A stretch of DNA of 64,000 bases. Source: an uncultured Candidatus Saccharibacteria bacterium (GTDB lineage Bacteria; Patescibacteriota; Minisyncoccia; Phycocordibacterales; JAACPR01). How positions within the stretch are numbered: position 1 is the first letter of the stretch; the number at the start of each line of letters is the position of its first letter. Shown piece after piece: positions 27,735-63,621 of the stretch. The notes under the pieces were generated by a model. It ran no database searches. It saw only the letters and a list, made by a program, of their open reading frames with translations, and was not told the origin of the DNA. Location of the stretch: positions 41,706-105,705 of the forward strand of contig CAZVRT010000002.1 in NCBI GenBank assembly GCA_964630375.1. The letters run 5' to 3'. Made by a program: the position numbers and the translations under genes.

Positions 27735-30065
27735 CTATCGAACCTTCCAACCAGTTTGACTGTTTAAAACTTGAGAAACTTTTTCCATTATCGAGTTAAT
27801 TTGTTCATCAGTTAATGTTTTTTCGAAAGATTGAAAAACTATTCTAAACGCATATGAAACGTTTCCATCTTTCTCAAACTTATCGAATAGGCGATTTTGT
27901 ACAACCAAATCTCCGGCATTTTCTTTTATTAAATTCCAAACATCTTCTTCTGAAACATTTTGTGGAACCCAAACAGCAATATCGCGCACAATAAAAGGAT
28001 AAATTGAAAACGCTTTATATTGTTTTGGAGAAAATTCTTTTTGAATTTTATAAAAACTATTTTGATCAACTTCCGGCAACTTTGAAATAATTTTATCTAA
28101 GTTTATTTCTGCAACTTTTTCTTTTATTTCAAAATCTGCATCACTTAGACTAAATTTATTTTTCAATTCCTCAATTGTTTTTTTCAAAGATTTTGCATTT
28201 GAGTTCGCAATTCCAAGTGTCAAAAATTCTTCTTCACCCTTAAACACTTTTCCAATTTCAAAAATTCGTACTTCACCCAAACCAAGTAAATCAATATTTC
28301 TTGTATTCAATTCTAAACTTTCTTTCAATCCGTCAGATAAATTATTTCTTAAAAAGCCTTTATCTTTTGTTAGAGGATTTGAAATCTGCACATCACCTTT
28401 TGATTGCAACGTATATGTCATCACATCCGTATACCCAAGACTCAAAAGAAAATCAGCGAACTCAAGAGAATAATATTGTGTCTTATCAAGCAACCGTGCA
28501 GTTTCTCTTTTTACCTCGTTGTTTCCAATATTTGAATAACCATAAACGCGTGCGATTTCTTCAATCAAATCTTCTTTGATTCGCACATCAATTCTTTCAT
28601 CCGGCACAGTCACCACAAATCTTTCTTCATCAGGATTTACAACTCTTCCATATCCAACAATATTTTGAAACCTTGTAGAATTTTTTATATCCTCGATAGT
28701 AACACCAGCATTGTTTTCTTCTGTACAATGAATCACTTCGTCATTCCCAAGATAAATTCCACAATGATCTACTCCTTCTGGAACTTGTATTCCTTTCATA
28801 AACTCGATACTTTCAGTATCTATTTTTCTATTTAAAATTCCTGTATTTGAAAAAATTAAATCTCCAGGCAACAAATTGTCTTTACCAATTTTAGAACTAA
28901 ATACATATTGATCTATCGACATTCGCGGAATTGAAGCTCCAGCTTCTTTGTACAAATAAGAAGTAAAAGATGAACAATCAAACGCTTCCGGTGCATCAAA
29001 CAAAACACTCGCTCCATATTTATAAGGTCGTCCAACAAAACTTTTTGCCATCTCAACGATATTTTCCAACGGCTTTACTTTATTATGTTCAAAATGCAAT
29101 CTATCCAAAATATTTGAAATTTCAGATTCAGAAAGATTTGTTCCAAGATATTTATTCACCTCGTTCACAGATACACCAGTTTTATATTGCCCTGCTTTTC
29201 TTGGATAAACATCAATAATGCTTCCAACTTTTGTATTTTCGTCAGATGCATACTTCAAAAGCATTTCTGTTAGCCGATTCATTGCAATCTCCGCCCACAG
29301 AGGTGTGATATCTCTTTCAAATCTTTTTGAAGATTCAGTATCAATTTGCAAAGCTCGTCTAGTTTTTCTTATTGCAACTGCGTCAAAGTTTGCAGCCTCC
29401 AAAAGCAAATTTACAGTTCCTTCTGCAACTTCAGCTTTTTTCCCTCCTTTAATACCTGCAATTGCTAAAACATCTTTTTCATCTGCAATCACCATTTCAT
29501 TTCCGGCAAATTTCACTTCTTTGTTATCCAAAGTTGTAAATTGAGTTTCGGCTTCAACGGTTCGCACCAAAATTTTCTTTCCACTCAATTTATCAGAATC
29601 AAAAGCATGAAGTGGTTGCCCTAAATCAAACATCACCACATTTGTACAATCAACAATATTATTTATAGATTTTTGCCCAATCGTTTCCAATTTCTTTTTC
29701 AATTCTTCAGGAGACGGACCAAGCTTTACTCCACGAATTTCTCGAGAGATATATCGCTTACAATTTTTGTCGTTCACTTCAACAGAAAATTCTGTTTCAA
29801 AATCAACTCGACTAATTTCATTTGGATAACCCTTCAAAGAAATTCCTGTCAAAACATTTACTTCTTTCGCAATTCCATAATGAGCAAAAGAATCATGTGC
29901 TCTGTTTGGTTGCACATCTATTTCATAAAGAAAATCATCTCCAACTTCTTTTACAGCTTCAACTTCATAAGCACCAACAGTCAAAGTGTGAGCAAGAGAT
30001 TTTGCATCAGGAAGTTTTCCATCTAAATGTTCTTGTATCCAATTGTACGAAACTCGCATACTCAT
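27735..30065 (-). CDS. pheT: Phenylalanyl-tRNA synthetase beta subunit. It lacks the N-terminal tRNA-binding domain and carries an inserted NlpC/P60 peptidase domain.
   Basis: B1-like 'SYNWIQEHL...VQPNRAHDSFAHYGIAKE', a B3/B4 editing region, B5 'VTVPDERIDVRIKEDLIEEIARVYGYSNI' and a C-terminal core. Residues about 335-475 are 'GRPYKYGASVLFDAPEAFDCSSFTSYLYKEAGASIPRMSIDQ...PGDLIFS...VDHCGIYLGNDEVIHC', the NlpC/P60 signature. Confidence 0.85.
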   Translation of the reverse strand: MSMRVSYNWIQEHLDGKLPDAKSLAHTLTVGAYEVEAVKEVGDDFLYEIDVQPNRAHDSFAHYGIAKEVNVLTGISLKGYPNEISRVDFETEFSVEVNDKNCKRYISREIRGVKLGPSPEELKKKLETIGQKSINNIVDCTNVVMFDLGQPLHAFDSDKLSGKKILVRTVEAETQFTTLDNKEVKFAGNEMVIADEKDVLAIAGIKGGKKAEVAEGTVNLLLEAANFDAVAIRKTRRALQIDTESSKRFERDITPLWAEIAMNRLTEMLLKYASDENTKVGSIIDVYPRKAGQYKTGVSVNEVNKYLGTNLSESEISNILDRLHFEHNKVKPLENIVEMAKSFVGRPYKYGASVLFDAPEAFDCSSFTSYLYKEAGASIPRMSIDQYVFSSKIGKDNLLPGDLIFSNTGILNRKIDTESIEFMKGIQVPEGVDHCGIYLGNDEVIHCTEENNAGVTIEDIKNSTRFQNIVGYGRVVNPDEERFVVTVPDERIDVRIKEDLIEEIARVYGYSNIGNNEVKRETARLLDKTQYYSLEFADFLLSLGYTDVMTYTLQSKGDVQISNPLTKDKGFLRNNLSDGLKESLELNTRNIDLLGLGEVRIFEIGKVFKGEEEFLTLGIANSNAKSLKKTIEELKNKFSLSDADFEIKEKVAEINLDKIISKLPEVDQNSFYKIQKEFSPKQYKAFSIYPFIVRDIAVWVPQNVSEEDVWNLIKENAGDLVVQNRLFDKFEKDGNVSYAFRIVFQSFEKTLTDEQINSIMEKVSQVLNSQTGWKVR

Positions 30066-59152: not shown

Positions 59153-60601
59153 TTATTTAATTTTACTCAAAAACACTTCGCGCAAAACTTGTGGATTTGC
59201 AGAACCACGCGAAATCTTCATTCCTTGTCCGATTAGGAATTGCAGAGAGGCTTCTTTTCCGCCTTTAAATTCTTCCCATACAGATGGATTCTCAGAAATA
59301 ATTTGGTCGACGATTGCTTCCAGTGCATCGATGTCGCTTTGTTGCTTCAAACCTTTTTCCTCCGCAATCTTTTCAGGGTCACCACCTTCTGCTACCATAA
59401 CTGCCAAAATATCTTTTGCCCCACGAGATGAAATTTCATTTTTCAAAATCATTTCTATAAGTTTTTTAAAATTCGCAGCTTCAGGAAAATTTTGTCCGTC
59501 TTTCATCAAAGCCGCCAAATCAGATGTAATGTAGTTCGCCGCAGTTTTAATAAACTCTTTATCACTTTCGCCACCTTCATTTTTCGCAACATTCTTGCCC
59601 GCAACAACCTCATCAAAAAACTTTGAAAAATTCTCGTTCACCACAAAAATATCCGCCGCCATTTCAGAAATTCCAAAGTCTCGCACCAATCTTTCTTTTC
59701 TTTCCCAAGGCAATTCCGGTAATTCGCCTCTCATTTTTTCCAAATCAAAAACTTCATGCAAATTCATTTTTGGTAAATCAGGTTCGGGAAAATATCGATA
59801 ATCGTCTGAGGTTTCTTTTTTTCTTTGAGAAAAAGTCCGAGAATTGTTTTCGTCCCAACCGCGAGTCTCCTGCACAATTTCATCACCTCTTCCGATTTCC
59901 AAAAGATCAATCATTCTTTTTATTTCATACTCAATTGCTTTCTCTACAACTCTAAAAGAATTCAAATTTTTCACCTCAACTTTTGTTCCAAATTTATCAG
60001 TATCAGAAACAGAAATATTTGCTTCAATTCGCATTTCCCCTTTTTCCATATTTGCATCACCTGCCCCCAAATATCGCAAAAGAATCTGAAAACTTTTTCC
60101 AAACTCCACAGCTTCTTTTGCGCTATGAATCACCGGCTCTGTAACAAGCTCCATCAAAGGCACGCCCGCACGATTAAAATCAACCAAAGAAAAATCCCCT
60201 CGATCGTGCTTTGACAATCCAGTATCTTCTTCCAAATGAATTCGAGTCAAATCAATTCCATTCAAACTTCCACCAGAAACAATCGGATATGCATACTGAC
60301 TTATTTGATAACCTTTCGGAATGTCAGGATAAAAATAATTTTTTCGATCAAACTCGGTAAAATTCGCGATATGACCACCAAGAGCAAGCCCAACACGAAT
60401 CACATGTTCAACTGCTTTTTTATTTATAGTCGGCAAAGTCCCAGGATGTGCCAAATCAATCGGATGCACATTTGCATTCGGCCGAAATTCATCAGGGTCA
60501 TTTTTAGATGTAGAAAACATCTTTGTCGCCGTCTTCAGCTCAGCGTGAATTTCTAGCCCAATTGTAGCTTTATATTTTGGGTTATTTGTCTCCTCGGTCA
60601 T
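59153..60601 (-). CDS. gatB: Asp-tRNA(Asn)/Glu-tRNA(Gln) amidotransferase subunit B
   Basis: 'KATIGLEIHAELKT', 'RAGVPLMELVTEP' and a C-terminal GatB/YqeY domain. The start is probably 'MTEETNN'. Confidence 0.85.
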   Translation of the reverse strand: MTEETNNPKYKATIGLEIHAELKTATKMFSTSKNDPDEFRPNANVHPIDLAHPGTLPTINKKAVEHVIRVGLALGGHIANFTEFDRKNYFYPDIPKGYQISQYAYPIVSGGSLNGIDLTRIHLEEDTGLSKHDRGDFSLVDFNRAGVPLMELVTEPVIHSAKEAVEFGKSFQILLRYLGAGDANMEKGEMRIEANISVSDTDKFGTKVEVKNLNSFRVVEKAIEYEIKRMIDLLEIGRGDEIVQETRGWDENNSRTFSQRKKETSDDYRYFPEPDLPKMNLHEVFDLEKMRGELPELPWERKERLVRDFGISEMAADIFVVNENFSKFFDEVVAGKNVAKNEGGESDKEFIKTAANYITSDLAALMKDGQNFPEAANFKKLIEMILKNEISSRGAKDILAVMVAEGGDPEKIAEEKGLKQQSDIDALEAIVDQIISENPSVWEEFKGGKEASLQFLIGQGMKISRGSANPQVLREVFLSKIK

Positions 60602-60633: not shown

Positions 60634-62334
60634 CTACCACCAAACTCCCTCTAAATTAGCATTCTTCATCTGTGTTCTTGTAAGTGGCCCAAAGTATCCA
60701 GAAGCTGGAGAGATTCCATTTGTGGCTTGGTATCTTGCAAGTGCAGACTGTGTTAAAGCACCAAAGAATTCTGTTTCATTTCCTAAAGAACCAGTACCTG
60801 AAGTTGTTATTATATATCCGTTTGAGTTTAGGAGTTTTTGTAGTGAAATAACATCTTGTCCTGTCATTCCTAACTCCAAGTTTCTAACTGGAATATTTGT
60901 TGTTGTATTGGTTGTTTGTATGTTTAGTATATCTAGTATGTTTTGTGGGAGAGATATGATACCTAGAGTGTGTAGTGTTGTTAGGGAGTCTTTGTATTGG
61001 AGTACAATAGAGTTTAGGGTGTTGTTTTTAGCTTGGAGGCTAGAAGGGACTGAGCGAGAAGAAGAGCGACGTGAGGGTTCTTCTGAGGGGGTTTGTTCTT
61101 CTGGTTGTTCTTCAATAGGGTTTTCCTCCCATATAGCATACAGTGTTGTATCAGAGTTTAGTGTGAATGAGTCACCTGGTTGGTATGAGTCTCCTTCACC
61201 ATCTGCTTGTGTGTTCCAGTTTAAGAAGGTGTATCCTTCGTATGTTGGTGAGGGTGGGAGTGTTACAGAGGTTCCTTCATCTTCTGTTATGTCTGGTATG
61301 GGAGATGCTCCTTGGGTGTTGAAGGAGAGGGTGTGGGATGGGAGGGTGAAGGTTCCGCGGTAAATGTAGTTACTATGTCCCACTGCAACTAATTTTGTAC
61401 CATCTGCAGAAGATGTGATTGACCTCCAGGACCTTGCACCAGCAGAAATTTGTTCTGTCCATGTGGCTCCTGAGTCTGATAAAGTGTGTATGTATCCACC
61501 ATTCACACCAGCCGCCAACTTTGTACCATCCGCAGATAAAGTTATTGCTTGCCAACTTCTTAAACCAGCAGAAGTTTGCTGGGTCCATGTAGCTCCTGAG
61601 TCTGAGGAGGTGTATATGTATTCACCAGCACCAGTAGCAGCTAGTTTTGTACCATCATCAGACGATGTTATTGCCCACCAGTTTCTAGAACCAGCGTCAG
61701 TAGAAGTTGCCCATGTAGCTCCTGAGTCTGCGGATGTATAGATGTATCCACCCTGTACCACTGCAGCTAATTTTGTACCATCTGCAGATGAGGTGATTCC
61801 ACGCCAACTTCTAGAACCAGCGTCAGTAGAAGTTGCCCATGTAGCTCCTGAGTCTGCGGATGTATAGATGTATCCACCCTGTACCACTGCAGCTATTTTT
61901 GTACCATCTGCAGATGAGGTGATTGAATCCCAGCTCCTGGAACCAGAATCTGTTTGTTCTGTCCAAGTTTCTCCGGAGTCTGTGGAGGTATAAATATATC
62001 TATCTCCTGAAGAACCACCAACTGCAGCCGCCAACTTTGTACCATCATCAGACGATGTTATTGCCCACCAGTTTCTAGAACCAGCGTCAGTAGAAGCTGC
62101 CCATGTAGCTCCTGAGTCTGAGGAGGTGTATATGTAGCTGCCAAGTGCAGTTGCAGCTAATTTTGTACCATCTGCAGATGAGGTGATTCCACGCCAAAAC
62201 CTTAAACCAGCCCCTGTCAACTCCTCCCACACCCACTCACCAGCAGCTTCTGCAGTTTGGGGTTTTATTATTAGAGGTGAGTAAGAGATTAATAAAGTAA
62301 ATAAAAGTATAAGGGCTGTGATTTTATTTTTCAT
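60634..62334 (-). CDS. Secreted BNR/Asp-box repeat beta-propeller protein with a Listeria-Bacteroides-type repeat and a C-terminal peptidoglycan-binding domain
   Basis: A signal peptide and at least eight copies of 'YTSxDSGATW' (SxDxGxTW) on about 42-aa units. There is a 'TFLNWNTQADGEGDSYQPGDSFTLNSDTTLYAIW' repeat and a PG_binding_1-like C-terminus 'GMTGQDVISLQKLLNSNGY...YQATNGISPASGYFGPLT'. Confidence 0.6.
   Translation of the reverse strand: MKNKITALILLFTLLISYSPLIIKPQTAEAAGEWVWEELTGAGLRFWRGITSSADGTKLAATALGSYIYTSSDSGATWAASTDAGSRNWWAITSSDDGTKLAAAVGGSSGDRYIYTSTDSGETWTEQTDSGSRSWDSITSSADGTKIAAVVQGGYIYTSADSGATWATSTDAGSRSWRGITSSADGTKLAAVVQGGYIYTSADSGATWATSTDAGSRNWWAITSSDDGTKLAATGAGEYIYTSSDSGATWTQQTSAGLRSWQAITLSADGTKLAAGVNGGYIHTLSDSGATWTEQISAGARSWRSITSSADGTKLVAVGHSNYIYRGTFTLPSHTLSFNTQGASPIPDITEDEGTSVTLPPSPTYEGYTFLNWNTQADGEGDSYQPGDSFTLNSDTTLYAIWEENPIEEQPEEQTPSEEPSRRSSSRSVPSSLQAKNNTLNSIVLQYKDSLTTLHTLGIISLPQNILDILNIQTTNTTTNIPVRNLELGMTGQDVISLQKLLNSNGYIITTSGTGSLGNETEFFGALTQSALARYQATNGISPASGYFGPLTRTQMKNANLEGVWW
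61370..62220. repeat. Tandem 126-nt coding repeats, some copies near-identical at the DNA level
   Basis: For example 61690-61770 and 61810-61890 share 'ccagcgtcagtagaagttgcccatgtagctcctgagtctgcggatgtatagatgtatccaccctgtaccactgcagct'. Confidence 0.6.
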
Positions 62335-62412
62335 ATCGTACTTAATTGTATAAGAGTACCCCCCCCCGCAAGAGGGTTTTCAACAAAAATATTAAATGTT
62401 TACTAAAAATTT

Positions 62413-63621
62413 TTAAAATGCCGAGCTAACATTATAAATCGGAATCAACACAGAAGCCAAAAGTGTTCCCACACCAAGACCAAGCAAAACAATCATTATA
62501 GGCTCAATCAAACCAACCAAAGTATCTACTGAGTTTGTAACTTCTCTTCGGTAAAATCTCGCAAGCGTTGAAAGAATTTCTCCCAAGTTACCAGTTTCCT
62601 CTCCAACTCTAATCATTTGAATCAAAATATTTGGAAACTCTTCATATCGAGAAAACGCTTCAGAAACTGCAGCACCAGATTTTACATCTTCTGTTGCACC
62701 TTCAATCGCACGCAAATAAACTTCGTTATCAACCACAGATTTAGTAAGCTCCAAAGATTTAACCATCGGAATACCAGAAGCAAGCATTGTATTTAAGTTG
62801 TCAGAAATTCTTGAAAGATAAAGCATTTTGTATAACTTTCCAACGTAAGGAATATTCAATCTAAAACTATCAAATGATTCTCTTCCAGCAGATGTATTTC
62901 TAAATCTGATAAGTAAAAATACTCCAACGATAAGCGCTATCAAAATATAAATTCCATAACTCACAAAGAAGTTTGAAATACCGATAACGATTTGCGTATA
63001 AATAGGAATCTCTTGTCCTGAGTCGATCAAAATCTGACTAATTTTTGGAATAACCAAAGTCAACATCAAAGCCATCACAGCAATAAAAGTTGTAATAACA
63101 AAAGCTGGATAAATCAAAGCATTTTTTGCTTTTTGAGTTATTTCATAAGTTCTATCCAAATAATCAGCAAGGAAAAGCAACACTTCATCAAGTCGTCCAG
63201 ATTCTTCTCCGGCTCGCACCATTGATACATAGAAAGCACTAAATACATCAGGGTGTTTTTCCAAAGCTCCTGCAATAGAACTTCCTCCTTGCAAATCGCT
63301 CACAATATCAGAAAGTTTTCTCGCCAATTTAGGATTTTCAGTTTCAGTTGCAAGCAATTGAAAAACACGCAAAGCAGAAACTTGAGCCTCAAAAAGAGTT
63401 GCAAGTTGTCTTGAAAGAATAACAATATCTTTGTTTGAAACTCTTTCCAAAAAAGCTAAATTTTTATTTAGAAATCCTTCTTTTGCGTCAGATTCAACAA
63501 TATTAGAAATAATGAAACCTCTTCTTTGCAAAGACGCAATTGCAATATCAATATTGATAGCTTCGATTGAACCATCTTTTTGATTTCCATCTTTATCTAT
63601 TGCTGAATATTGAAATAACAT
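62413..63621 (-). CDS. pilC: Type IV pilus assembly / type II secretion platform protein (PilC/GspF family)
   Basis: Two GspF-like repeats and three TM segments, next to the pilT-like ATPase. Confidence 0.75.
   Translation of the reverse strand: MLFQYSAIDKDGNQKDGSIEAINIDIAIASLQRRGFIISNIVESDAKEGFLNKNLAFLERVSNKDIVILSRQLATLFEAQVSALRVFQLLATETENPKLARKLSDIVSDLQGGSSIAGALEKHPDVFSAFYVSMVRAGEESGRLDEVLLFLADYLDRTYEITQKAKNALIYPAFVITTFIAVMALMLTLVIPKISQILIDSGQEIPIYTQIVIGISNFFVSYGIYILIALIVGVFLLIRFRNTSAGRESFDSFRLNIPYVGKLYKMLYLSRISDNLNTMLASGIPMVKSLELTKSVVDNEVYLRAIEGATEDVKSGAAVSEAFSRYEEFPNILIQMIRVGEETGNLGEILSTLARFYRREVTNSVDTLVGLIEPIMIVLLGLGVGTLLASVLIPIYNVSSAF

Follow-up and report, generated by a model that had tools for sequence, protein, structure and literature searches.

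The window considered here, a continuous stretch of 64 kb from a bacterium of the Patescibacteria that PilC homologues assign to the Paceibacterota / Parcubacteria, carries on its minus strand the genes pilT, pilC, a gene encoding a protein with BNR repeats (termed here the BNR gene) and gatB, in that order, with a homopolymeric tract just upstream of the BNR gene; the coordinates of these features are collected in Table 1. The original prediction had taken the product of the BNR gene to be secreted and peptidoglycan-binding, and this is upheld by its predicted signal peptide and its BNR, Flg_new and PG_binding_1 domains. The propeller of the 566-aa protein is built of six 42-aa blades, which are coded by 126-nt tandem repeats, the PG_binding_1 domain is located at the C-terminus, and the N-terminus, MKNKITALILLFTLLISYSPLIIKPQTAEA followed by AG, reads by inspection as a Sec signal peptide.

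Table 1. Features of the BNR locus and its surroundings, with positions in the 64-kb window
Feature	Position	Strand	Remarks
gatB, downstream neighbour	59153..60601	-	GATAAT box 9 nt before the ATG
BNR gene, encoding a 566-aa secreted protein	60634..62334	-	Signal peptide, BNR/Asp-box propeller, Flg_new, PG_binding_1
Lineage-specific inserted segment, 1779 nt	60634..62412	-	BNR gene with the 78 nt ahead of it; flanked by pilC and the promoter of gatB
-10-like hexamer TACAAT	62345..62350	-	5/6 match to TATAAT; ends 10 nt before the ATG
Weak RNA hairpin ACCCUCUU-GCGG-GGGGGGGU	62358..62377	-	The tract forms the 3' arm
G9 homopolymer, candidate slippage tract	62359..62367	-	C9 on the plus strand
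-35-like hexamer TTGCGG	62366..62371	-	3/6 match to TTGACA; 15 nt from TACAAT
pilC (T2SSF family), upstream neighbour	62413..63621	-	Own TGTTATAAT box 6 nt before the ATG
Alternative sigma-70-like match TTGGCT-18-TATAAT	62431..62460	-	In the 3' end of pilC; 10/12 matches

The repeats that code for the blades occupy 61380-62197, where 6.4 tandem copies of the 126-nt unit are found with 72% matches and where some adjacent copies are 85-86% identical. Recombination between these repeats could alter the number of blades, and repeats of this kind would fragment short-read assemblies. Pilin-like proteins seem to present the propeller in other lineages, the homologues P0024, P0031, P0103 and P0114 each carrying a prepilin-type N-terminal methylation domain, and this fusion of homologous propellers to prepilin N-termini points to a role at the surface or in attachment. 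Elsewhere in the window, at 27735-30065 on the minus strand, a phenylalanyl-tRNA synthetase beta chain is encoded in which the B3_4 and B5 domains are separated by an inserted NlpC/P60 peptidase domain (E = 1e-16, residues 345-470), an odd fusion.

The BNR gene is accessory. Five relatives that do not have the gene (L002, L086, L087, L088 and L089) carry gatB about 24 nt after pilC, and their PilC proteins are 87% (L002), 93% (L086 and L087) and 90% (L088 and L089) identical to that of the window; since pilC adjoins gatB in all five, the BNR gene and its upstream region form a lineage-specific insertion. The inserted segment has a G+C content of about 42%, compared to 34% for the window, and no flanking repeats or target-site duplication were found around it. 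The homopolymer lies 45 nt inside the insert, away from its junctions.

As originally described, the homopolymer was a run of nine C, or G9 on the coding strand, in 34%-GC DNA and 25-35 nt upstream of the ATG, and both statements are confirmed: the run is present at 62359-62367 in a window of 34.0% G+C and, counted from the ATG of the 566-aa ORF at 62334, it spans -25 to -33. No other G/C run in the 64 kb exceeds five bases, and for this stretch a first-order Markov model gives an expectation of 0.02 runs of at least nine. Under the same model shorter runs are also fewer in the window than expected, with none observed of 6-8 bases against 3.5 expected and eight observed of 5 bases against 15.5 expected, and runs of at least six are likewise depleted in 127 kb of low-GC relatives. 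Because G/C runs are depleted in the window, the G9 tract is a real outlier. When the Markov expectation is scaled to a genome size of about 0.6-1 Mb, assumed for the group, some 0.2-0.4 such runs would occur by chance in the whole genome, and the rarity of the tract is therefore not decisive on its own.

Considering the promoter in which the tract may lie, the window has a marked architecture of gene starts. TATAAT-like hexamers with at least 5/6 matches occur 6-9 nt before the ATG in 21 of 60 genes, where 1.8 would be expected (about 12-fold), and an SD-like motif is found upstream of just 2 of the 55 long ORFs. The same peak of -10 boxes at 6-9 nt before the ATG is seen, across G+C classes, in 84 loci of other Paceibacterota (L002-L081 and L086-L089). 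The boxes are often preceded by TGn, 24 of 37 having T at -3 and 16 having G at -2, and even pilC and gatB, which sit within a tight gene array, have a -10 box of their own. The scarcity of SD motifs and the presence of these boxes imply mRNAs that are leaderless or near-leaderless, with one promoter per gene, as far as gene-start patterns can indicate this. In leaderless genes of Actinobacteria, Deinococcus and archaea, the Pribnow box precedes the start codon by about 7 nt, and the genes described here are similar to these in lacking an SD motif and in carrying a -10 box at 6-10 nt from the ATG. A literature search found no paper on such a leaderless -10/ATG pattern in the phylum.

By these features the BNR gene is a unit of the leaderless type, with TACAAT 10 nt before its ATG and no SD motif. 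The distance of 10 nt borders on the 6-9 nt mode, is still within the distribution and, unlike that of leaderless genes proper, would give a leader of some 2-4 nt from the predicted start. Since TATAAT-like boxes cluster 6-9 nt before starts and SD motifs are nearly absent, TACAAT is a credible -10 element of the BNR gene, and taking it as such would place the G9 tract in the spacer immediately upstream. The BNR box is not preceded by TGn, an extension present in a third of the other promoters, and a promoter of this type should for that reason lean more on contacts further upstream.

The other half of the promoter is less clear. The hexamers named in the original prediction are all present, namely TTGCGG at 62371..62366, TCTTGC at 62373..62368 and TATACAAT at 62352..62345, and the final two bases of TTGCGG are at the same time the first two G of the tract. 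Among the strong promoters of the window, 5 of 23 have TTG at a 15-nt spacer compared to 0.7 expected, a count that includes the BNR promoter itself, and this peak was not replicated in the loci of relatives. When 124 TG-less promoters of the clade were pooled, -35-like hexamers at spacers of 15, 16 and 17 nt numbered 8, 10 and 11 against 5.2 expected, which suggests a mild enrichment, and the aligned promoters show no conserved -35. Use of a -35 element at the BNR promoter is thus possible, if weakly supported by these counts, and were the element unused, the length of the spacer would matter little. The placement of the tract within the core promoter is backed on the -10 side by the genome-wide enrichment of boxes, and is less well supported on the -35 side, where usage in the clade is weak.

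Promoter homopolymers of this kind are known from Neisseria meningitidis, in which the tracts of porA, fetA and opc sit between the -10 and -35 elements, so that slippage alters the spacer and with it the level of transcription; the porA tract is a poly-G and those of opc and fetA are poly-C (PMC2791445). Homopolymers of at least 8 nt in this species are mostly variable, and the G9 tract is long enough to reach the hypermutable threshold of about 8 or more taken from the same study (PMC5084427). The BNR locus resembles porA, opc and fetA in having a G/C homopolymer of about nine or more upstream of a gene for a surface protein, in its case between a putative -35 and a predicted -10 hexamer, and its product can be classed as surface-exposed or secreted by the signal peptide read by inspection, the domains and the accessory status of the gene. 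It differs from them in being a candidate switch predicted from sequence, in that its -35 is no more than TTG-like in a clade where -35 use is weak, in that it is carried by a member of the Patescibacteria whose genes are of the leaderless type, and in that it is a lone tract and not one among many contingency loci. In the opa genes the repeat, CTTCT, sits in the coding region. As precedents the original prediction had listed opa, nadA and fetA, of which fetA is apt and the other two are not, the proper parallels being porA and opc: nadA has a TAAA tetranucleotide repeat upstream of the core promoter, which works through NadR/IHF spacing (PMC2791445), and for the opacity protein the associated repeat is a pentanucleotide, CTTCT (PMC5084427). 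Both share with the switch proposed for the BNR locus the principle of a surface-protein switch through slippage at a simple-sequence repeat, whereas neither is a homopolymer in a promoter spacer.

With the layout TTGCGG, 15 nt, TACAAT, 10 nt and ATG, and with the tract in the spacer, the following mechanism can be proposed. Replication slippage at G9 would make the spacer 1 nt longer or shorter, this change would alter the distance of the -10 box from the -35-like TTG and from the A/T-rich DNA further upstream, and the shift would turn transcription of the secreted, peptidoglycan-binding beta-propeller protein up or down, giving a stochastic and reversible switch of the porA/opc/fetA type. 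If the genes are leaderless or nearly so and have no SD, the promoter would be essentially the sole signal for expression, and for this reason an altered spacing could work as a genuine switch. Among tract lengths that show high-frequency switching, nine G is one of the shorter. In favour of the proposal are the outlier tract, the presence of a -10 box belonging to the gene itself, the TG-less promoter and the accessory secreted gene directly after pilT-pilC; against it are the weak -35 signal of the clade, the single tract, the depletion of G/C runs otherwise, a -10 at the edge of its mode and, further upstream, the TTGGCT-18-TATAAT match, which is closer to the promoter consensus. We tentatively regard a functional promoter-spacer switch of the BNR gene as a serious possibility, and as a phase-variation candidate of the porA/opc/fetA kind the tract is plausible but unproven.

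Slippage would be expected to leave alleles of different tract length, and none were seen, the sole second copy of the tract being an identical one. This is Logan contig L001 (SRR16797976), which is 100% identical to the window over 1666 nt, has G9 as well and possibly derives from the same reads. Position 1999 of this contig corresponds to 62335 of the window, and the contig thus stops one base before the BNR start codon and 24 nt past the tract; bubbles of tract length at k=31 would probably not break a contig there, and the cause could be low coverage or strain variation at the start of the gene. Exact look-ups of the BNR protein and of GatB gave no matches in the protein collections, the N-terminal 124 aa of the BNR protein used as query found no near-identical fragments, and PilC as query led to one Logan contig, identical to the window. 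A gapped pattern of the flanks of the tract retrieved just unrelated phage-like contigs from the metagenome contigs, and nothing from the viral contigs. Comparison with related genomes, which had been put forward along with the original prediction, showed that the five relatives (87-93% PilC identity) are without the whole gene and that a 53%-identical full-length homologue (L085) is without the upstream tract.

Other tracts of the same type are equally scarce. In about 650 kb of relatives (84 loci) no intergenic G/C tract of at least eight bases was found, the single other G/C run of that length lying inside a coding ORF of L048, and most of the 7-base G/C runs in relatives whose flanks were read are Gly-Gly codons within genes. 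The run in L048, a Kaiserbacteria MAG contig of 56% G+C, is a G9 at 1842-1850 in a reverse-transcriptase-like ORF (...QGGGT...); the other strand carries a four-helix-bundle-like ORF, and the G9 site would be prone to frameshifts. The 64 kb of the window, which is part of the genome, contains no second G/C run of at least six bases and hence no repertoire of contingency loci, or phasome, and nothing nearby suggests that the lineage relies on several switches of this type. MutS-like domains were absent from the ten ORFs scanned with Pfam, of which nine were the longest in a crude gene list.

The tract may instead be a mere passenger of a horizontally acquired segment of 1.78 kb, with no regulatory role and with the -10 box alone driving the promoter, as seems to hold for most promoters of the clade, in which case slippage would be neutral noise and expression constitutive, perhaps weak from a G/C-rich spacer. 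The lineage-specific occurrence of the segment and its base composition (42% G+C against 34%) fit such an account, as do the want of a conserved -35 in the aligned promoters, the tractless upstream region of the L085 homologue, the lack of further tracts in the window or intergenically in relatives and the 0.2-0.4 runs per genome that the Markov model, with its assumed genome size, allows by chance. A neutral G9 should decay, however, given that G/C runs of 5-8 are under-represented, and its position exactly between a -35-like TTG and the -10 of a TG-less promoter, ahead of a surface-type gene of the class usually placed under such switches, also speaks against a passive origin, which we consider rather unlikely. 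A role in transcribed RNA is a more distant prospect. The BNR gene could be read from a promoter within pilC or be co-transcribed with pilC, and a hairpin between the G-run and the upstream CCCUCUU would then affect mRNA stability, processing or partial termination. If the TTGGCT-18-TATAAT promoter, a 10/12 sigma-70 match read from 62460 to 62431, were used, the tract would become part of a 5'UTR some 90 nt long; the genes run in one direction with little space between them, and a stem of 8 bp with three G-U pairs is predicted to use the tract. Yet sigma-70-like matches are no commoner in the region than in shuffled controls, the intergenic fold does not surpass that of shuffled sequence (z = -0.36), and the pattern throughout the genome is one of a separate -10 box just ahead of each ATG. 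The possibility of an intrinsic terminator was dismissed, the scan being empty at the site and the hairpin being followed by ACUCUUAUAC, with no U-tract, and so was that of a structured RNA family, the Rfam matches being at chance level (E of about 7-10, far below gathering scores). On balance an RNA-level role appears quite improbable. The sigma-70-like match is itself unique to the lineage of the window when compared with L086 and L087, arising from two synonymous changes at the 3' end of pilC (CTG to TTG and AAC to AAT), which may be simple A+T drift.

Two further explanations are both very improbable in our judgement. The run might be an artefact of sequencing or assembly, or its assembled length might be wrong. 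Two-colour Illumina chemistry yields poly-G tails, which would be a possible source, and the corroborating contig L001 may stem from the same reads and ends 24 nt past the tract; against this, the run lies in the interior of the sequence between unique flanks, two assemblies agree on G9, and the tract is 45 nt within the insert and not at a junction. Poly-G tails are moreover confined to the 3' ends of reads and should be unable to join two unique flanks on one strand. The second concerns the flanks of the tract, AACCCTCTTGC ... TACTCTTATACAAT, which recur exactly in L082 (2447-2481), L083 (1870-1904) and L084 (1214-1248), three phage-like metagenome contigs homologous to one another, with agreement at each of the 25 specified flank bases and a 10-nt core replacing the G9. 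In these contigs the element forms, in the opposite orientation, a conserved 5'UTR between the sigma-70 promoter TTGACA-16/17-TATTGT and an SD with ATG, and a small gene (MAKTARKTIEVG...) is found downstream. The flanks could be left over from a regulatory module of a mobile element or phage on the opposite strand, in which a G/C run has taken the place of the core, and the 25/25 match to a conserved 5'UTR in three contigs is what commends the idea, the chance expectation of such a match being 0.01-0.1 by a rough estimate. The similarity nevertheless ends at the two flanks, no ORF follows the SD-like GAGGG on the plus strand of the window, no matches were found in viral_contigs or GenBank phages, and translation in the phage-like contigs is SD-led, unlike that of the organism studied here, and the resemblance is probably coincidental.

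Returning to the proposed spacer switch, its interest lies in the organism and the gene, as the mechanism itself is a textbook one and no new principle is involved. The Patescibacteria, ultrasmall and for the most part uncultured, are believed to spend their lives on the surface of host cells. A literature search did not find repeat-mediated phase variation reported in this group. That the tract is the first simple-sequence contingency locus in the Patescibacteria (Candidate Phyla Radiation), with a leaderless-type promoter whose poly-G spacer provides stochastic ON/OFF control of a recently acquired, peptidoglycan-binding propeller protein encoded beside type IV pilus genes, is a claim we regard as doubtful at present, and a promoter homopolymer that controls an accessory wall-binding protein next to pilus genes would provide a cheap and testable example. 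The position of the -10 box near the ATG, together with the missing SD, may also aid gene calling and promoter prediction in the group. If the proposal is true, the switch would diversify, within a population, how the surface of an episymbiont meets its host or phages.
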